Virus record (IMG/VR): IMGVR_UViG_2657244961_000006
Direction: 5' to 3' (one strand)
Origin: a virus
Lineage: Duplodnaviria; Heunggongvirae; Uroviricota; Caudoviricetes
Length of the DNA: 9,766 bases
A program made the position numbers and the translations under genes. Positions 1 to 9,766 of the stretch are shown piece by piece; the first letter of the stretch is position 1, and every line of letters starts with the position of its first letter. The notes beneath the pieces are model-generated. The model was not told where the DNA came from and ran no database searches. It saw only the letters and a program-made list of their open reading frames with translations.

Positions 1-1239
1 ATGGGCAGCGCAATTCATAGACTTAGCGATACTTTTTTACGAAAATTAAGCGGATCACCAGCCACAAAAAACGCCTTTTTTAATGACGGTGGCAATCTTA
101 GCGTAAGACATTCCACCAGCGGCCTTTTAACCTGGTATTTCACTTACAGGGCCGGAACTGGTAGGCAGGTATCACCTGAACGTCTGAGGCTGGGCAATTA
201 TCCCGATCTGAGCCTGAAAGCAGCCAGGGAAAAAGCGGCACAGTGTCGCGCCTGGCTGGCGGAGGGGAAAAATCCACGCCATGAGCTTAATCACACAGTG
301 CAGGAAGCGTTATCACCTGTGACGGTTAAGGAAGCGCTCACTTACTGGCTTGAGTCGTATGCGAAGGAAAAGCGCACAGACTACGAATCTCTGAAGAGCC
401 GGATCAATAAACACATAATCAGCCAGATTGGCGCTATGCCGCTGGAGAAATGCGAGCTACGGCACTGGCTGGCCTGTTTTGATCAGATGGCAAAGCTAAG
501 CCCTGTATCTGCCGGATTTTTGCTACAGGTATGCAAGCAGGCGCTTAAATACTGCCGCAAACGTCGCTACGCAATCAGCAACGTTCTTGATGATATGGTT
601 GTCGGTGATGTGGGAAAAAAAGCAGAAGTGAGCGAGCGCGTACTAACAAACAAGGAGCTTGGGGAATTACTCCGCGCCCTGGATGACAAAATATTCCCGC
701 CGTACTACAGCGCCCTGATTCGCCTCCTGATTGTTTTTGGATGCCGTACCACTGAGCTAAGACGCTCTGAGGTGCAGGAGTGGGATTTTAAGGAAATGCT
801 CTGGACAGTGCCGAAGGAGCACAGCAAAACGAAGGTCGCCATATTCAGGCCAATACCGGAAAGCATTTTGCCGTTCGTCACGCAGCTGGTGGAGCAGAAC
901 CGACGCACGGGTTTATTGCTTGGTGAACTGAAAGGGCAATCTTCGGTAGCAGAGTACGGAAGAACAGCGCACAGGCGCATTAATCAAGCCCCCTGGTCGT
1001 TGCATGACATCCGGCACACATTTACAACCATGCTGAACGATTTAGGCGTGGATCCGCATATTGTCGAGCAGCTTACAGCCCACCAGATGCCAGGGATGCA
1101 ACGAGTCTATAACCACTCCCGCTATCTTGATGCAAAACGTGATGCTCTTAACCTATGGGTAGACCGTCTCGAGCTTCTCCAGAACAATGATGAAAAAATC
1201 GTTGTTATGACCCCGCGAATTTACCACCAAAATTCTTGA
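1..1239 (+). CDS. int: Tyrosine recombinase, P4-type integrase (412 aa)
   Basis: ORF 1-1239. N-terminal arm-binding-like region typical of P4-family integrases, and C-terminal catalytic motifs: R in TTELRRSE, H-x-x-R in HDIRHTF, Y in VYNHSRY. Starts at window position 1, so the true N-terminus could lie upstream. Confidence 0.9.
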   Translation: MGSAIHRLSDTFLRKLSGSPATKNAFFNDGGNLSVRHSTSGLLTWYFTYRAGTGRQVSPERLRLGNYPDLSLKAAREKAAQCRAWLAEGKNPRHELNHTVQEALSPVTVKEALTYWLESYAKEKRTDYESLKSRINKHIISQIGAMPLEKCELRHWLACFDQMAKLSPVSAGFLLQVCKQALKYCRKRRYAISNVLDDMVVGDVGKKAEVSERVLTNKELGELLRALDDKIFPPYYSALIRLLIVFGCRTTELRRSEVQEWDFKEMLWTVPKEHSKTKVAIFRPIPESILPFVTQLVEQNRRTGLLLGELKGQSSVAEYGRTAHRRINQAPWSLHDIRHTFTTMLNDLGVDPHIVEQLTAHQMPGMQRVYNHSRYLDAKRDALNLWVDRLELLQNNDEKIVVMTPRIYHQNS

Positions 1240-1656: not shown

Positions 1657-1866
1657 ATGCGTGAAATAAATGAAGATCGCGTAATCCGTGAGGATGAATG
1701 TCGTAAGTTAACTGGAGTGTGTCGTACTACACGCTACGAACTGGAGAAAAAAGGGAGCTTTCCGTCTCGCCGTAATCTTGGTGGGCGTTCTGTAGGTTGG
1801 CTGCTGTCCGAGGTTATGGAATGGGTTAAAAGCCGGGATCGCATTAATTCAGGTAAGGCAGCGTAA
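1657..1866 (+). CDS. alpA: AlpA-family transcriptional regulator / excisionase-like protein (69 aa)
   Basis: In-frame ATG at 1657 inside ORF 1570-1866. Product MREINEDRVIREDECRKLTGVCRTTRYELEKKGSFPSRRNLGGRSVGWLLSEVMEWV has the AlpA/MerR-like HTH pattern (helix, GGR-x-VGW, E-x-x-EW). Size matches AlpA (~70 aa); the GTG at 1570 would give an atypical 98-aa form. Confidence 0.8.
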   Translation: MREINEDRVIREDECRKLTGVCRTTRYELEKKGSFPSRRNLGGRSVGWLLSEVMEWVKSRDRINSGKAA

Positions 1867-3524: not shown

Positions 3525-5338
3525 AAAAAGCGCCAAATTTAAAACACCAACCGCGTGACAAAATGACGGAAGTCATCATTTTTGCGGGTAGTGATGCGTG
3601 GGCACATGCGAAGCAGTGGCAGGAACAGGACGGGCGACTGGCTGGCGATAACGTGCCACCTGTCTGGCTTGGAGAGCAACAACTTGCCGAACTGGACAAC
3701 CTGCAAATCGTACCGGACGGACGCTATCGCGTGCGTCTCTACCAGGCGGGGTTATTGCGTCCGGGGCTTGTTAATACCATCGGGCAGAAACTGGCAGCGG
3801 CAGGTGTCAGGGATGCTGATTATTACCCTGAAGGAATGCACAGCCAGAAACGGGAGAACTGGCGCGAATATCTGGAACGTGAACGGGCAGAGCAGGCGGA
3901 AAAGAAAAAGGTAGTTGAACTGCCTGTAAAGAAAAAAGAGCGGGTAAAAGACGATAACGCTTCATCACTGGCGCTTAACCAGATGGGAGCAAGTCAACGC
4001 GGCGAAGTTCTCCTGGCACATTATGGCGGTGAACTGGCGATTCATGCTGACTCTGACACTGTTCACCATTACAACGGCGTTGTATGGGAGCCAGTACAGG
4101 ATAAAGAATTACAGCGAGCTATGGCACAGATTTTCATTGATGCGGAGATCAGCTATTCGCAGAACGCCATTAAATCGGCGGTCGATACCATGAAGTTAAG
4201 TTTGCCTGTAATGGGGAATACAGCCCGTAACCTGATTGGATTCAGTAACGGGGTATTTGATACCAGAACAGGTAATTTTCGGGAGCATAACAAAAACGAC
4301 TGGTTGTTAATTGCCAGTGAATTACCTTTCAGCCCACCAGCAGAGGGGGAAACGCTGGCAACACATGCGCCGAATTTCTGGAAGTGGTTACGCCGTTCGG
4401 TGGCTGAGAATGACCGCAAGGCGGATCGCGTACTGGCTGCATTATTCATGGTGCTGGCGAACCGGTACGACTGGCAGTTATTCATTGAGGTAACAGGTCC
4501 AGGGGGAAGTGGTAAAAGCGTGATGGCGGAGATTTGCACCATGCTGGCGGGTAAGGCCAACACAGTATCGGCAAGCATGAAGGCGCTGGAAGATGCAAGG
4601 GAACGCGCGTTAGTGGTTGGCTTTTCGCTGATTATCATGCCGGATATGACCCGCTACGCTGGTGATGGGGCAGGAATTAAGGCCATTACAGGCGGTGACA
4701 AGGTGGCAATTGACCCGAAACACAAAGCCCCCTACTCAACGCGTATTCCGGCAGTAGTGCTGGCGGTTAACAATAACGCCATGTCATTCAGTGACCGCAG
4801 CGGGGGGATCTCACGTCGTCGGGTGATATTCAATTTTTCGGAAGTTGTACCGGAGAACGAACGCGATCCAATGCTGGCGGAAAAAATAGAAGGTGAGCTG
4901 GCGGTAGTGATTCGCCATCTGCTTACACGGTTTGCTGACCAGGACGAAGCCAGACGCCTGTTATATGAGCAGCAGAAATCTGAAGAAGCACTGGCGATAA
5001 AGCGAGAGGGGGATTCGCTGGTGGACTTCTGCGGCTATCTCATGGCGTCGGTAATGTGTGATGGCCTGTTAGTGGGTAATGCTGAAATTGTGCCATTCAG
5101 CCCACGCAGGTATCTCTATCATGCCTATCTGGCTTATATGAGGGCACATGGGTTTGGTAAACCTGTAACACTGACGCGCTTCGGTAAAGATATGCCGGGG
5201 GCAATGGCGGAATATGGCAGGGAGTATATGAAACGGAAAACGAAGCACGGTTTGCGTTCAAACGTGACACTGACGGAGGAATCAGAAGACTGGATGCCAT
5301 CATGTGTATCGGTCACTAATGACGATAGCAAAAATTAA
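3521..5338 (+). CDS. P4-family phage/plasmid primase with SF3-type helicase domain (605 aa)
   Basis: ATG at 3521 (GGAGAG SD 8 nt upstream) inside ORF 3506-5338. Walker A GPGGSGKS, Walker B-like VVGFSLIIMPD, D5-N / primase C-terminal-like central region. Immediately followed by the cognate-looking iteron array. Confidence 0.85.
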   Translation: MKKAPNLKHQPRDKMTEVIIFAGSDAWAHAKQWQEQDGRLAGDNVPPVWLGEQQLAELDNLQIVPDGRYRVRLYQAGLLRPGLVNTIGQKLAAAGVRDADYYPEGMHSQKRENWREYLERERAEQAEKKKVVELPVKKKERVKDDNASSLALNQMGASQRGEVLLAHYGGELAIHADSDTVHHYNGVVWEPVQDKELQRAMAQIFIDAEISYSQNAIKSAVDTMKLSLPVMGNTARNLIGFSNGVFDTRTGNFREHNKNDWLLIASELPFSPPAEGETLATHAPNFWKWLRRSVAENDRKADRVLAALFMVLANRYDWQLFIEVTGPGGSGKSVMAEICTMLAGKANTVSASMKALEDARERALVVGFSLIIMPDMTRYAGDGAGIKAITGGDKVAIDPKHKAPYSTRIPAVVLAVNNNAMSFSDRSGGISRRRVIFNFSEVVPENERDPMLAEKIEGELAVVIRHLLTRFADQDEARRLLYEQQKSEEALAIKREGDSLVDFCGYLMASVMCDGLLVGNAEIVPFSPRRYLYHAYLAYMRAHGFGKPVTLTRFGKDMPGAMAEYGREYMKRKTKHGLRSNVTLTEESEDWMPSCVSVTNDDSKN

Positions 5339-5352
5339 ACTTATGGAATAAC

Positions 5353-5581
5353 TGTTCACCACTGTTCACCCTGTCATAAATATCTTTTATATCAGTATAT
5401 TATAGGGTGAACAGTTATTTATGAACTGTTCACCAAACTATTCACTGTTCACCTTTTTGATTGTTTATTGAGCTTCAAGGGTGAACAGTGGTGAACAGTT
5501 GGTGAATAGTTTTTGTGAAACTGTTCACCCCTTAACATTATGAATTAAAAGAGAAAATATCAAAAGGTGAACAGGTGAAGG
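5353..5581. repeat. Replication-origin-like iteron array: about 9 perfect copies of TGTTCACC / GGTGAACA in both orientations plus degenerate copies, interspersed with AT-rich DNA
   Basis: Direct copies at 5353, 5363, 5427, 5446, 5522; inverted copies at 5406, 5480, 5490, 5566; degenerate ggtgaata at 5501. The octamer TGTTCACC matches, from memory, the type I iterons bound by P4 alpha protein at ori/crr. Confidence 0.8.
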
Positions 5582-5723
5582 GTTAAAACGCAAAAATTTT
5601 AATTTACTGCTGTGAGATAAAGCCTATGACAGCGAAGCACACCAAAACAACAGGCGGGGAATGATGATCCGTACGGGGATAACATACCGTTTTAAGCAAC
5701 GAGTAACAGAAGCCGGAGCAATC

Positions 5724-5804
5724 CGCCTTTTTTATGGGTCCTCCCGGTGGAGTGGTCTGCCACGGGGCGGGAGCGTCGCGGAAAAAGGCTGGTTTTTGCA
5801 TTTT
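5724..5804 (+). other. cos-like site A: ~80-bp element resembling the lambda cosQ-cosN junction, with candidate cohesive-end 12-mer GGGCGGGAGCGT (5765-5776)
   Basis: Ungapped match to the remembered lambda right-end/left-end junction (gggtcctttccggtg...acg GGGCGGCGACCT cgcggg). Here gggtcctcccggtgg...cacg GGGCGGGAGCGT cgcgg, conserving the flanks and 8 of 12 positions of the 12-mer. About 90 percent identical to element B. Confidence 0.6.
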
Positions 5805-5853
5805 CATGGCGGCGGCAGCATGTGTGATAATTTATTGATAATTAAAAGTTATT

Positions 5854-5951
5854 TCTGTTTTCACCTGTACAATATTTTTTTCTCCCTGTCATTAGACCAG
5901 TTTGCAATTAATTGAAATATATAAATAAATCTGTTTTTCACCTGCCAGGTG
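5854..5951 (+). repeat. Two direct repeats tctgtttt(t)cacctg (5854-5867, 5930-5944) plus palindrome CACCTGcCAGGTG (5939-5951) downstream of cos-like site A; candidate cosB-like terminase-binding sites
   Basis: Read directly. They loosely recall the lambda cosB R-site region (ctgtttttgtccgtgg, from memory). Confidence 0.4.
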
Positions 5952-5993
5952 GAGTTGCCTGTGTCAAAACGTGTTCAGATGGCGGGATATTTA

Positions 5994-6017
5994 TGCCGGA
6001 TTTTCTCCGGCTTTTTT
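5994..6017 (+). terminator. Rho-independent terminator (gccgga-ttttc-tccggc followed by TTTTTTGTG)
   Basis: 6-bp GC stem, 5-nt loop and T-run read directly. Sits between cos-like site A and the 6120 gene. Confidence 0.65.
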
Positions 6018-6119
6018 GTGTCTGAATCTCATTAATCTATTTTTATGATAGAAATATGTTTATCTACCACTTTTATCGATCAATAATGTGCACAGTTTAG
6101 TCAGTAAGAGGAAGTTACT

Positions 6120-6326
6120 GTGAGTTGTATTAATGACCTGAACACGGGCGATATCAGGGGTGGTTCCGTTCATCTGGATGCGCAGACCGTTATGCGCCTT
6201 AAGCAGTACAGGATCGACCATATAAATCATCATCCTGACAAACCATTACCAGGTGTGGCGCAGATTGTCAGACATGCCGTAAACACCTGGCTTAATCAGA
6301 ATGGTTTTGCATCGGTGGGGGAATAA
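6120..6326 (+). CDS. Small putative RHH-like DNA-binding protein (68 aa, GTG start), translationally coupled to the downstream protease/capsid-like gene
   Basis: Strong SD AAGAGGAAG (6105-6113) about 6 nt before GTG 6120; stop TAA overlaps the next ATG (TAATG at 6324-6328). Product contains a beta-strand-like GGSVHLDAQTV followed by helical segments. Confidence 0.5.
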   Translation: MSCINDLNTGDIRGGSVHLDAQTVMRLKQYRIDHINHHPDKPLPGVAQIVRHAVNTWLNQNGFASVGE

Positions 6327-8239
6327 TGAATCGCTGGTACACCATTAAGGCGGCGGATGTTCGTGGAGCGGCGGATATATCTATCTATGAGGAGATTGGC
6401 GGCTTCGGTGTTACTGCAAAGCAGTTCGCGGAAGACCTGAAAGCCCTTGGCGATGTTTCACATATCAATCTGAGGATCCATTCACCAGGTGGTGATGTGT
6501 TTGAAGGCATCGCCATCTATAACCTGCTACGGAATCATCCGGCAGACATTACGGTTTATATCGATGGTGTTGCGGCTTCAATGGCTTCGGTGGTCGCAAT
6601 GGCTGGCGATCGTGTTGTGATGCCGGAAAACGCCATGATGATGATACATAAGCCGTGGGGTATCTCTGGCGGAAATGCTGGTGATATGCGTGATTATGCT
6701 GATTTGCTGGATAAGGTGGAAACCGTGTTAGTCCCTGCTTATGCCAGAAAAACGGGCAAATCAGCACAGGAAATTACCGCCATGCTGGAAGATGAAACCT
6801 GGATGGACGGGAAAGAATGCCTTAAGCACGGTTTTGCTGATGAATTGTTGCCATCCGTCAGAGCAATGGCGCGAATTGAATCGAAGCGCACAGGAGATTT
6901 TTTACATATGCCGGAAACCATTAAAGGAATGATTACACCGCCACAGGGAGCGGCAAATATTGCTGGTAATGAACAGAAACGCATCAATGGAATAAGTGAA
7001 GTGTTTAGCCTGTTCGGCAGTCGTTACGACGGGATCAAAATGGCGTGTCTGGAAGATGCATCATGTACACCGGAAATGGCCCGTGAAAAGCTGTTGAACG
7101 AGCTGGGGCGCGAGTCCACGCCATCCAATAAAAATACCCCGCCTCATATCTATGCCGGAAACGGAAACATAACAGGTGATGCAATTCGTCAGGGGCTTTA
7201 TTCCCGTCTTGGGTATGAACGCCCTGAACGAGGCAACCCTTACGCGATGATGAGCCTTTTTGAAATGGCCCAGGCATCACTGGTTGATCGTGGTATCACT
7301 GTGAGTGGTTTTATTAATCGCTCGCAGGTTGTTAATGCGGCTTTTACACACAGCAGCAGTGATTTTTCTCATATTCTGGCTGGTGGGGCTGAAAAATCTG
7401 TACTGAAAGGCTGGCAGGACAGCGGCGAAACGTTCCAGAAATGGACGCGTACCGGTTCGCTTTCAAACTTTCATGAAGCAAAGCGCGTTGGTCTGAATGG
7501 TTTTTCAAAGCTGGATAAAGTACCGGAAGGTGCGGAATATAAATACATCACCACCAGCGATAAAGGTGTACCTATTGCGCTGGCCACGTACGGGAATATT
7601 TTTTCCGTTACCCGTCAGGCCATTATCAACGATGACCTGACCCAGTTAACTACAATCCCCATGGCGATGGGACGCGCAGCCGCCAGAACAGTTGGCAATC
7701 TGGTTTATCTCCTGTTAACCAGCAACGGCAAGTTTACGGATGGTAAAGCGTTATTCCATGCCGATCATAAAAATCTTATTGCGAAGGATATGGACATGGT
7801 GGGGCTTGATGAAGCCCGTAAGCTGATGCGCCTCCAGGAGGATGCTAACGGCGACTCACTGAATATTACCCCTGCTTTTGTTCTGGTCCCTGCCGCGCTG
7901 GAATCTGCCGCGCGTCGCGCCATTCTGTCATCGTCATCAGTCTTTCCGGTTGGTGATGAGGGCACTATCAATCAGAACCCCGGCATCATTAACGTTGTGA
8001 AAGATATGGCAGAAGTAATTGTTGAGCCACGTCTTGATAAGGCCAATAGCAAGGAATGGTATGTAGCCGCAGCTAAGGGGATGGACACAATAGAAGTCGC
8101 TTATCTTGATGGTATGGATACGCCATATCTTGAGGAGCAGGTGGGCTTTACTGTTGATGGTGTCGCCTGGAAGGTGCGCATAGATGCAGGTGTCGCGGCC
8201 CTCGATTATCGTGGATTGCTGAAATCGAATGGAGCATGA
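6326..8239 (+). CDS. Fusion protein (637 aa): N-terminal ClpP-like (S14) prohead-protease domain plus large C-terminal domain, possibly an HK97-fold major capsid-like domain
   Basis: ORF 6326-8239. Residues ~20-190 show the ClpP signature (GDVFEGIAIYN, GVAASMASVVAMAGD with the candidate catalytic Ser, MMMIHKPWG with the candidate His, later acidic residues). The C-terminal ~430 aa are long enough for a scaffold plus capsid domain; the capsid assignment is from general resemblance only. Confidence 0.8.
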   Translation: MNRWYTIKAADVRGAADISIYEEIGGFGVTAKQFAEDLKALGDVSHINLRIHSPGGDVFEGIAIYNLLRNHPADITVYIDGVAASMASVVAMAGDRVVMPENAMMMIHKPWGISGGNAGDMRDYADLLDKVETVLVPAYARKTGKSAQEITAMLEDETWMDGKECLKHGFADELLPSVRAMARIESKRTGDFLHMPETIKGMITPPQGAANIAGNEQKRINGISEVFSLFGSRYDGIKMACLEDASCTPEMAREKLLNELGRESTPSNKNTPPHIYAGNGNITGDAIRQGLYSRLGYERPERGNPYAMMSLFEMAQASLVDRGITVSGFINRSQVVNAAFTHSSSDFSHILAGGAEKSVLKGWQDSGETFQKWTRTGSLSNFHEAKRVGLNGFSKLDKVPEGAEYKYITTSDKGVPIALATYGNIFSVTRQAIINDDLTQLTTIPMAMGRAAARTVGNLVYLLLTSNGKFTDGKALFHADHKNLIAKDMDMVGLDEARKLMRLQEDANGDSLNITPAFVLVPAALESAARRAILSSSSVFPVGDEGTINQNPGIINVVKDMAEVIVEPRLDKANSKEWYVAAAKGMDTIEVAYLDGMDTPYLEEQVGFTVDGVAWKVRIDAGVAALDYRGLLKSNGA

Positions 8240-8267: not shown

Positions 8268-8431
8268 GCGGCGAGCTGCCGCACCATATTCCTGAACAAC
8301 TGAGCAAACGAGAGAGGTATACCGACAAATGGCAGCGACGCACACACTCCCTCTGGCGTCACCGGGCATGGCACGCATCTGCCTTTACGGGGATTTACAA
8401 CGATTTGGCCGCCGCATCGATCTTCATGTGA
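8268..8431 (+). pseudogene. Start-less 3' remnant of a lambdoid tail-tip assembly protein K-like gene, overlapping the start of the I-like gene
   Basis: The frame is open from 8240 to the TGA at 8429-8431 with no start codon, encoding ...GELPHHIPEQLSKRERYTDKWQRRTHSLWRHRAWHASAFTGIYNDLAAASIFM. This resembles the C-terminus of lambda K as I recall it, and in lambda K overlaps I in the same way. Confidence 0.5.
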
Positions 8432-8970
8432 AAACGGGGGCCGAAGCCATCCGGGCGCTGGCCATGCAGATCCCAGCGTTTCGTCAGAAACTGAGCGATG
8501 GTTGGTATCAGGTGCGTATTGCCGGGCGTGATACAGGCGAAAACGAATTATCAGCCCGTCTTAATGAACCGCTGGAAAATGGTGCCGTGATCCACATCGT
8601 ACCGCGTCTGGCTGGTGCCAAAAGTGGCGGCGTGTTTCAGGCGGTGCTTGGTGCGGCGCTGATTGCTACGGCAATCTGGATGCCAGGAATCAGTATCGCT
8701 TTCAGTGACATTCTCTTTTCAATGGGGGCGGCGATGACACTTGGTGGTGTTGCACAGATGCTGGCACCGAAAGCCAGCACAGCAACAGCCAGCACCACGG
8801 ATAACGGTAAGCAGAACACCTATTTCTCCTCTCTGGATAACATGGTTGCCCAGGGCAATGTTATGCCTGTTCTGTACGGTGAAATGCGCGTCGGGTCGCG
8901 GGTGATTTCGCAAGAGATCAGCACAGCAGATGAAGGGGATGGCGGCCAGATTGTGGTGATTGGTCGCTGA
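8329..8970 (+). CDS. Lambdoid tail-tip assembly protein I homologue (213 aa)
   Basis: ORF 8329-8970. N-terminus MAATHTLPLASPGMARICLYGDLQRFGRRIDL... and C-terminus ...DNGKQNTYFSSLDNMVAQGNVMPVLYGEMRVGSRVISQEISTADEGDGGQIVVIGR closely match my recollection of phage lambda gpI. The central hydrophobic segment is shorter than in lambda. Confidence 0.8.
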   Translation: MAATHTLPLASPGMARICLYGDLQRFGRRIDLHVKTGAEAIRALAMQIPAFRQKLSDGWYQVRIAGRDTGENELSARLNEPLENGAVIHIVPRLAGAKSGGVFQAVLGAALIATAIWMPGISIAFSDILFSMGAAMTLGGVAQMLAPKASTATASTTDNGKQNTYFSSLDNMVAQGNVMPVLYGEMRVGSRVISQEISTADEGDGGQIVVIGR

Positions 8971-9041: not shown

Positions 9042-9124
9042 CGCCTTTTTTGGGTGGGTCCTCCCGGTGAGGTGGCCTGCCACGGGGCGGGAGCGGCGCG
9101 GAAAAAGGCTAGTTTTTGCATTTT
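9042..9124 (+). other. cos-like site B: second copy of the cosQ-cosN-like element, with candidate 12-mer GGGCGGGAGCGG (9085-9096), directly upstream of the Nu1-like gene
   Basis: About 90 percent identical to element A over ~80 bp. The downstream AT-rich DNA (ttcgtcat..., gtttttattt) resembles the lambda cosB/I-site region as remembered. The position relative to the small terminase gene mirrors lambda cos-Nu1. Confidence 0.65.
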
Positions 9125-9280
9125 TATTCGTCATCATCATCTTTCTATTATATTGAATTTTAAGTGTTTTTATTTTTGGTATGTTAATTTTGCTTATTTT
9201 GTGTTCAACATGCAGCGCGTTTTTTGACCTTTTTTAAAAGATATTTGCAAGATGCATTTTTAAAACATTCTGGAGCGGGT
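9125..9280 (+). promoter_or_regulatory. AT-rich cosB-like / promoter region upstream of terS
   Basis: A+T-rich 150 bp between cos-like site B and the terS start; contains ttcgtcat and gtttttattt motifs; no individual promoter elements called. Confidence 0.4.
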
Positions 9281-9766
9281 ATGGATCGGGAACTGAAAAA
9301 TCTGATGCTGAACATTAACCAGCTGGCGGCGATAGCGGGAATATGTCGCCAGACTGCGGCGGCAAGGCTGAAAAATATCCAGCCAGCCGGAGGACATGAC
9401 AAGCTGAAACTCTATCGGGTGACTGACATTCTGACCTGTTTTCTTGATCTTCCCGTTCCGGCATCACTGGAAGAAATGGAGCCACACGACCGTAAGGCCT
9501 GGTATCAGTCCGAACGTGAGCGCCTCAAGTTCGAACAGGAAACGGCGCAACTCATACCCGCCGATGATGTGCGAAAAGAGATGGCTATATGGGGAGAAAT
9601 CGTAAGCGAGGAACTGGAAAAACTCCCCAGTATTCTGGCACGTGATGTTGGGCTTAAACCGATGGCAGTAAACAGAGTGCAGTCAATTATTGACGATTTG
9701 TGTAATCAGATTATCAGCCGGATGGTAAAAAATGACGTAGTGAATGAGGTCGCAAAACAGGCATGA
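9281..9766 (+). CDS. terS: Nu1-like small terminase subunit / packaging-specificity protein (161 aa)
   Basis: ATG at 9281 (GGAG SD 6 nt upstream) inside ORF 9224-9766. N-terminal winged-HTH-like segment LNINQLAAIAGICRQTAAARLKN...LKLYRVTDIL parallels lambda Nu1 (VNKKQLADIFGASIRTIQNWQ...EVLYDSAAVIKWY, from memory), followed by a helical ERERLKFEQETAQL region. Confidence 0.7.
   Translation: MDRELKNLMLNINQLAAIAGICRQTAAARLKNIQPAGGHDKLKLYRVTDILTCFLDLPVPASLEEMEPHDRKAWYQSERERLKFEQETAQLIPADDVRKEMAIWGEIVSEELEKLPSILARDVGLKPMAVNRVQSIIDDLCNQIISRMVKNDVVNEVAKQA

Follow-up and report, generated by a model that had tools for sequence, protein, structure and literature searches.

The stretch of DNA analyzed here, called the window throughout, is 9,766 bp long and is 96 to 97% identical, over 96 to 98% of its length, to sequences from E. 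coli. The 5' part of the element to which it belongs carries, in order, an integrase gene, an alpA-type gene, YlcI/YnfO (on the opposite strand), an Icd-like gene, a hypothetical gene, a DUF4222 gene, and a gene annotated as "DNA primase family protein" (pri-rep), followed by the repeat array that we propose as the replication origin. The 3' part continues with a cos site, a small open reading frame (ORF), a protease/capsid fusion, a gpK' fragment with a gpI-like gene, a second cos site, a DUF1441 gene, and another small ORF (Table 1). The AlpA-family protein is 45% identical to Vis/orf88 of P4. We rejected a 342-aa ORF at 1877-2905 as a gene, since RefSeq relatives have YlcI/YnfO (minus strand, 2215-2517) and the Icd-like gene (~2708-2905) in this interval; the latter explains the match of the C terminus of this ORF to a PHROG "transcriptional repressor."

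Table 1. Coordinates of features in the window and the matches that identify them
Feature	Position	Strand	Description
Tyrosine integrase	1..1239	+	Left end of island
AlpA-family regulator or excisionase	1657..1866	+	Pfam Phage_AlpA, E=5e-16; annotated in relatives
Pri-Rep initiator-helicase, 605 aa	3521..5338	+	N-terminal PICI-specific domain, D5_N, SF3 helicase, C-terminal winged helix
Pri-Rep N-terminal domain, ~135 aa	3521..3925	+	In place of primase part of P4 alpha
Winged-helix origin-binding domain (predicted)	5009..5299	+	Residues 497-593; PDB 1KA8 match, E=1.8e-24
Proposed replication origin	5353..5581		9 exact + 1 one-mismatch + 1 two-mismatch (C)TGTTCACC iterons, both orientations
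Origin left arm	5351..5453	-	BLASTN vs P4 9415-9310: 73% over 109 bp, E=3.6e-7
AT-rich spacer, left arm	5371..5405		35 bp, 80% A+T; candidate DNA-unwinding element
Origin right arm	5475..5581	+	BLASTN, 5475-5547 vs P4 9304-9378: 78.7% over 75 bp, E=7e-10
AT-rich spacer, right arm	5530..5565		36 bp, 81% A+T; candidate DNA-unwinding element
cos site 1 (cosQ + cosN)	5724..5807	+	12-mer GGGCGGGAGCGT (5765-5776) at lambda cohesive-end position
ClpP-like prohead protease/major capsid protein fusion	6326..8239	+	NCBIfam NF045540, E=7e-271
gpK C-terminal fragment and gpI-like gene	8329-8970		Lambdoid tail piece
cos site 2 (cosQ + cosN)	9042..9127	+	12-mer GGGCGGGAGCGG (9085-9096) at lambda cohesive-end position
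DUF1441 TerS homologue	9281..9766	+	Pfam DUF1441; PHROG 141 terminase small subunit

By these features, the element is a phage-inducible chromosomal island (PICI), 10.8 kb in size, and belongs with EcCICFT073 among the cos-type PICIs of Gram-negative bacteria. It has an integrase at its left end, an AlpA-family regulator, and core genes that all run rightward; pri-rep lies directly 5' of an origin in which two sets of iterons surround AT-rich DNA; and the island carries helper-type cos sequence in two cosQ/cosN copies. Its full extent is given by a close relative in a finished assembly (NZ_CP148328.1), a circular molecule of 10,790 bp with 13 genes that is 96.9% identical to the window. Small as it is, the element has neither lysis genes nor a complete set of structural genes, the gpK' fragment and gpI-like gene being the exception. 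The relative is annotated as plasmid pZ1323HEC0475-3, which is probably an excised, replicating PICI and not a true plasmid. Meanwhile, in another relative, the island is found in the chromosome between cspD/yljB and clpS. When compared with a related locus (L011, positions 7349-7938), the window has a deletion of ~590 bp 3' of the origin. This deletion removed an 81-aa hypothetical gene and most of an SSB gene that relatives have at this place, and a 12-codon stub at 5626-5664 (MTAKHTKTTGGE, then a stop) is the remnant of the hypothetical gene.

To characterize the repeat array, we counted exact copies of the octamer TGTTCACC. There are 10 in the window, of which 9 cluster within 5353-5573, five on the plus strand (starting at 5353, 5363, 5427, 5446, and 5522) and four on the minus strand (5406, 5480, 5490, and 5566). 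The count expected for the whole window from 200 dinucleotide shuffles was 0.31, and none of the shuffles (0/200) reached 10 copies. This bears out the claim of an earlier note, made from the letters alone, that octamer iterons lie in both orientations at 5353-5581. The cluster includes a further copy with one mismatch (TATTCACC, at 5501 on the minus strand) and one with two mismatches at 5574-5581, the latter being the reason that the earlier note ended the feature at 5581. In all 11 copies of the cluster the octamer is preceded by a C at position -1, so that the true site is (A)CTGTTCACC. The tenth exact copy, at 4060 within the gene upstream of the cluster, is compatible with chance.

The cluster begins 15 bp after the pri-rep stop codon, and this location 3' of pri-rep is the position of the origin in PICIs. 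Its G+C content (28 to 40%) contrasts with that of the flanking genes (~50%). Across seven related origins, invariant columns are concentrated in the iterons (65/80) relative to the rest of the region (92/182; Fisher P = 2.5e-6). We found no DnaA boxes, IHF consensus sites, or GATC within the origin, and a promoter scan of 5250-6400 returned no sigma-70-like promoter. A terminator scan of the same interval returned a single terminator-like hairpin, at 5995-6011, and no RNA family in Rfam matched the window. A full-text literature search for TGTTCACC yielded only unrelated primer sequences; the iteron sequence was not found in the supplements of the 2018 PICI paper, where iterons are given in a figure only.

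The octamer is the one used by P4. In the P4 record (X51522), the repeats annotated as "ori type 1 repeats" are exactly TGTTCACC in 6 of 6 cases in ori and in 5 of 10 in crr, as the earlier note had expected when it proposed that the iterons be compared with P4. When searched against phage records by BLASTN, the iteron region matched both P4 ori and P4 crr, and a direct comparison with P4 revealed that the left and right arms of the array match the same segment of P4 ori on opposite strands. The comparison of spacing that the note had called for also came out in its favor, with both arms colinear with the ori core at nearly equal distances. Specifically, the starts of successive iterons in the right arm are separated by 10, 11, 21, and 44 bp, versus 10, 11, 22, 43, and 10 bp in P4 ori, while those of the left arm, read backwards, are separated by 19, 21, 43, and 10 bp. 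On the minus strand, the left arm reads as two iterons, one opposite iteron, an AT-rich spacer, and two iterons, as does the P4 ori core, and the spacer of the right arm (5530-5565) is equivalent in position to the AT-rich stretch of P4 ori.

An alignment of the arms from the window, EcCICFT073, and vB_KppS-Ant with P4 ori was colinear throughout. The unit common to them consists of two to three iterons, one opposite iteron with a (T)TAAC-like motif, ~35 bp of AT-rich DNA, and two iterons; the motif after the opposite iteron is TTAAC in most of the aligned arms. Because both arms are colinear with the P4 ori core, the proposed window origin is an inverted duplication of a P4-ori-like unit.

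Alternatively, the array might serve mainly in control, as an enhancer of the crr kind, as a site of handcuffing or copy-number setting, or as an incompatibility site at which Pri-Rep is titrated, with replication truly starting elsewhere. The right end of the cluster does resemble a crr unit of P4 (5524-5579 versus 4551-4496; 81% over 58 bp by BLASTN), and the cluster lies directly 3' of the initiator gene, as crr does in P4. However, for both arms the match to P4 ori is the better one, and it extends further than the match to crr. Furthermore, the array is the sole iteron cluster in the full 10,790-bp circle of NZ_CP148328.1, a single compact array with no separate ori and crr pair, and deletion of the equivalent region of EcCICFT073 strongly reduced plasmid replication. 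We therefore regard a mainly regulatory role as improbable and retain the reading of 5353-5581 as an origin.

The initiator that would act at this origin is related to the alpha protein of P4 in its helicase and DNA-binding parts. Pri-Rep matches the Pfam families D5_N, DUF5906 (SF3 P-loop), and Pox_D5; it is 51% identical to residues 320-771 of P4 alpha (BLASTP) and 49% identical over its full length to Pri-Rep of EcCICFT073. At its C terminus lies a domain that matches the origin-binding domain solved for P4 alpha (PDB 1KA8) and that is the predicted reader of the TGTTCACC iterons. The Zn ribbon (residues 30-66) and Toprim domain (210-299) of P4 alpha have no counterpart in Pri-Rep, and a Pfam Toprim domain is likewise missing. 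The earlier note had described a P4-type replication module with a primase. The likeness to P4 holds for the iterons, their layout, the helicase, and the DNA-binding domain (DBD), but the word "primase" did not hold up.

The N-terminal domain of Pri-Rep has no match in Pfam or NCBIfam. It has a Toprim-like fold in which the acidic catalytic motifs are missing, and its profile showed no significant match to the primase half of P4 alpha, so the Toprim-like assignment comes from the fold alone. The domain may be a vestigial Toprim-like domain without catalytic residues. With a Zn ribbon and a competent Toprim domain missing, priming is probably left to the host primase. Elsewhere in E. coli, RepA/AAA_25 (PF13481) helicases carry this domain as a fusion, as does another type of initiator. 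Between the window and L011, it is 65% identical while the remainder of Pri-Rep is 96 to 98% identical, which shows recombination at the domain boundary; the N-terminal domain is a mobile module.

We compared the parts of Pri-Rep with those of three relatives that differ in background or in iteron type. P4 alpha, which shares the TGTTCACC iteron, is 64% identical in the helicase and 47% in the DBD, and its N-terminal domain is not homologous. Pri-Rep of vB_KppS-Ant, also with TGTTCACC iterons, is 92% identical in the helicase, 80% in the DBD, and 46% in the N-terminal domain. For EcCICFT073, where the iteron is TGTCTACC, the corresponding values are 56%, 33%, and 69%. Given that EcCICFT073 has the same origin layout with another iteron and a DBD that is only 33% identical, DBD and iteron covary. 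In these comparisons, the DBD tracks iteron type and the N-terminal domain tracks PICI background.

The packaging signals of the island are of lambda type. Both window cos copies align with cosQ and cosN of lambda but differ from it in the 12-mer, the lambda cohesive end being GGGCGGCGACCT. The two copies are direct repeats 3.3 kb apart and are 89.5% identical to each other; downstream of cosN, in the region equivalent to cosB, their sequences differ. The first copy is 91.7% identical over 72 bp to the cos region of phi458. Its 12-mer, GGGCGGGAGCGT, is that of phi458, and the left end of mEp460_4F5 aligns with a short gap within the 12-mer. The second copy lies directly 5' of the TerS-like gene, as in mEp460/phi458-type phages, and from there through the DUF1441 gene the window is 72 to 73% identical to the cos-terS region of mEp460-like phages. 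The claim that the element carries lambda-type cos signals was therefore right as to the presence of cosQ and cosN, in two copies, although these are of the mEp460/phi458 type and not those of lambda itself. A hairpin followed by a T run (5709-5731) directly precedes cosQ of the first copy. Its stem has one mismatch in the window and is perfect in NZ_CP148328.1 (AAGCCGGAGCAATCCGGCTTTTT); an equivalent hairpin precedes cos1 of EcCICFT073. The hairpin at 5709-5731 was absent from the output of the simple terminator scan.

The genes around the cos sites are of the same kind. The DUF1441 protein is 68% identical to TerS of phi458, and the protease-capsid fusion, which represents a captured capsid gene of helper type, shares 58% identity with its counterpart in phi458. 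Given the likeness of cos, TerS, and protease-capsid fusion to those of phi458 and mEp460, phages of this lambdoid type are the likely helpers. The DUF1441 gene occupies the slot that rppA has in EcCICFT073. We considered its product as an Rpp and rejected it: the protein has no likeness to RppA or to the neighboring EcCICFT073 protein and no match in PDB. We found no Rpp that would redirect helper TerS, nor any match to Rpp structures. Rpp is not universal among PICIs, and its part is probably played in this island by the TerS copy that the island itself encodes.

Between the capsid gene and the second cos site (8270-8970), the window holds a C-terminal fragment of gpK and an apparently intact gpI-like gene (213 aa) whose product, a tail assembly protein, matches PHROG 32 over its full length; the lambdoid tail fragment that the earlier note had seen is thus present. 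This tail piece is found only in the closest relatives (H1-H4). Tail genes are "forbidden" in the PICI model of SatelliteFinder, and islands with the tail piece may therefore be missed by that program.

There are two further readings of these phage-like genes, and we judge each to be very unlikely. Under the first, the element would be a capsid-forming PICI (cf-PICI) that makes its own capsids and steals only tails. The protease/major-capsid fusion and TerS homologue would fit this, as would the same origin type in the 16.5-kb vB_KppS-Ant, which has terminase, portal, and connector genes. Yet portal, large terminase, HNH, and head-tail connector genes are absent from both the window and the complete 10.8-kb circular relative. 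A lone capsid gene is, moreover, typical of classical Gram-negative PICIs (21/29 reference PICIs), and that of EcCICFT073 is dispensable for transfer. Under the second, the locus would be a decayed remnant of a lambdoid prophage whose repeats have no present function. Against the lambdoid capsid, tail (K'-I), TerS, and cos sequences and the ~590-bp deletion that took the hypothetical and SSB genes stand the intact reading frames of all core PICI genes, the conservation of the iterons, the existence of the element as a circular molecule in a finished assembly, and near-identical origins in 594 genomes.

The weakest reading, that the window is a P4-like (P2-dependent) satellite, intact or degraded, that acquired lambdoid DNA, has the identical type I iterons, the alpha-like helicase and DBD, the Vis/AlpA homologue, and a distant integrase homologue to its credit, but it can be set aside as exceedingly improbable, since TBLASTN of all 13 P4 proteins against the window matched only int (23%), alpha residues 320-771, and Vis (sid, delta, psu, epsilon, cI, cII, gop, and beta gave no match), BLASTN gave no match to P4 DNA beyond the alpha gene and ori and hence none to a P2/P4-type cos, the DnaG-type primase of alpha, a separate ori and crr, and the sid-delta-psu genes are all missing, and gene order and content match EcCICFT073.

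The origin allele is widespread and is joined to different packaging (hijack) modules. Using 5300-5620 as a query, we found matches in 594 of 5,426 complete E. coli genomes (~11%), with at least 80% coverage in 591 of the 594; in almost all of the matches listed, the allele lies under or adjoins a "DNA primase family protein" or its equivalent. Two of the loci, L008 and L011, have the same protease-capsid and two-cos module as the window and sit within the large-terminase gene of lambdoid prophages whose TerS is of the DUF1441 type. The insertion is seen at positions 1-1091 and 11427-12557 of L008, and likewise in L011. The surrounding prophages also encode the protease-capsid fusion, a helper-embedded PICI configuration that points to the natural helper family. 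Locus L009 encodes the major capsid protein together with a head decoration protein and a small terminase subunit, arranged like those of EcCICFT073; L010 carries a third module, which encodes a small terminase subunit along with a major capsid protein; and vB_KppS-Ant combines the same origin type with a full head module. As these arrangements and the comparisons of Pri-Rep show, recombination acts independently on the N-terminal domain, on the block of helicase, DBD, and origin, and on the packaging module.

We consider it very likely that a 10.8-kb cos-type PICI of E. coli uses 5353-5581 as its origin of vegetative replication and that this origin works in the following way. After induction and excision, the C-terminal winged helix of Pri-Rep would bind the 10 to 11 (C)TGTTCACC iterons. 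The two inverted P4-ori-like units, each enclosing a spacer of 35 to 36 bp with ~80% A+T, would be melted in these spacers by iteron binding, and the SF3 helicase part of Pri-Rep would be loaded there, leading to bidirectional theta replication with priming probably supplied by the host primase. The lambda-type cos sites of the island would then serve for cutting the replicated DNA, which a lambdoid helper of the mEp460/phi458 type would package, with the TerS homologue of the island probably steering cos cutting and packaging. Within this scheme, we infer the site of melting, the route of priming, and the identity of the helper. The feature seen by the earlier note is confirmed as real, and its reading of the locus was right in substance. 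Its suggestion of a satellite lineage that replicates like P4 and parasitizes lambdoid cos phages is an accurate description of the Gram-negative PICIs. This lineage was already described in 2018 and is common; publications already cover the class along with its replicon function and cos piracy.

The main value of the analysis is a correct annotation, that of a PICI replicon which belongs to the P4 alpha/ori lineage and is coupled to an mEp460-type packaging module. It goes beyond published comparisons in finding that a common PICI origin allele has exactly the iteron of P4 ori and the same architecture of the unit. In one such comparison, the replication proteins of satellites are called "distantly homologous," and a survey from 2023 puts forward the view that satellite families have primase-replicases that are "analogs instead of homologs." For the allele described here, homology with P4 is plain in both protein and origin, and the anatomy shared by PICI and P4 replicons implies common descent rather than analogy. 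This is a modest addition that leaves classification unchanged. A PICI "primase" without the primase motifs of alpha further predicts dependence on host priming. With ~11% of complete E. coli genomes carrying a PICI origin in the exact P4 iteron code, it is conceivable, if doubtful, that P4-like satellites and these PICIs cross-talk through this code in cells carrying both. If so, P4 alpha could act on the PICI origin by firing or occupying it, and Pri-Rep, which lacks a primase, could bind P4 ori or crr. Satellites that belong to two helper families would then cross-activate each other, compete, or be incompatible. The shared iterons, the lost primase motifs, and the independent recombination of modules make cross-talk and the mechanism of priming directly testable.

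Among known systems, the phages mEp460 and phi458 share with the island a nearly identical cosQ-cosN and, at the identities given above, TerS and the protease-capsid fusion. They differ in having TerL, a portal, a full tail set, and lysis genes, which are missing from the island and which it must therefore borrow. P4 shares the octamer, the order and spacing of iterons, the AT-rich stretch, the SF3 helicase and DBD, and a repeat cluster just 3' of the initiator gene. In contrast to Pri-Rep, its alpha protein has a Zn ribbon and Toprim primase (residues 30-299); its ori and crr are 4.7 to 5 kb apart, whereas the window has one compact, inverted-duplicated origin without type 2 repeats; and it uses P2 as helper and a P2-type cos, whereas the likely helpers of the island are lambdoid siphoviruses. 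The cf-PICI-like element vB_KppS-Ant (LR881103, listed as an Escherichia phage), a 16.5-kb element from an induced lysate, has the TGTTCACC origin layout and is 74.6% identical over 257 bp to the window origin; it differs in its full head and packaging module (TerS, TerL, portal, capsid, and connectors). Helper-embedded PICIs (PMC10111431) have the origin allele, Pri-Rep, and, in L008 and L011, the two-cos and protease-capsid module. The window island differs from them in its chromosomal site (cspD/yljB-clpS in the relative) and in the loss of the hypothetical and SSB genes.

The closest known system is EcCICFT073, the model element among Gram-negative cos-type PICIs. It shares, in the same order, int, alpA, YlcI/YnfO, the Icd-like gene, DUF4222, pri-rep, the origin, a capsid homologue, a packaging gene, and a terminal ORF, as well as two cos sites and a two-arm origin layout that can be superimposed on that of the window. 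It differs in its iteron (TGTCTACC versus TGTTCACC) and in its DBD. Its cos sites have the exact lambda 12-mer in inverted orientation (L005, ~14556 on the plus and ~15312 on the minus strand), while those of the window are of phi458 type and are direct repeats. Furthermore, the two differ in gene content, with RppA, a capsid gene of lambda type, and a decoration gene in EcCICFT073 and the DUF1441 TerS, the protease-capsid fusion, and the K'-I fragment in the window. Four Pri-Rep variants have been published (2018 PICI paper, PMC6092414). Two cos sites with lambda-like cosQ and cosN have been mapped in EcCICFT073, lambda and phi80 mobilize the element and its DNA is packaged in capsids of phage size (PMC6092414, PMC6739421), and its Rpp redirects helper TerS (PMC6739421). 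Helper-dependent induction, replication, and high-frequency transfer are published only for EcCICFT073 (PMC6092414, PMC6739421). The replication experiment with primase gene and iterons that the earlier note had proposed has already been done on this sister allele: EcCICFT073's pri-rep-ori segment drives plasmid replication in DH5alpha, activity is lost on deletion of rep or ori, and deletion of the ori equivalent strongly reduced plasmid replication (PMC6092414). By analogy with this sister element, replicon function, the use of two cos sites, and mobilization by lambdoid helpers would apply to the island in the window as well.
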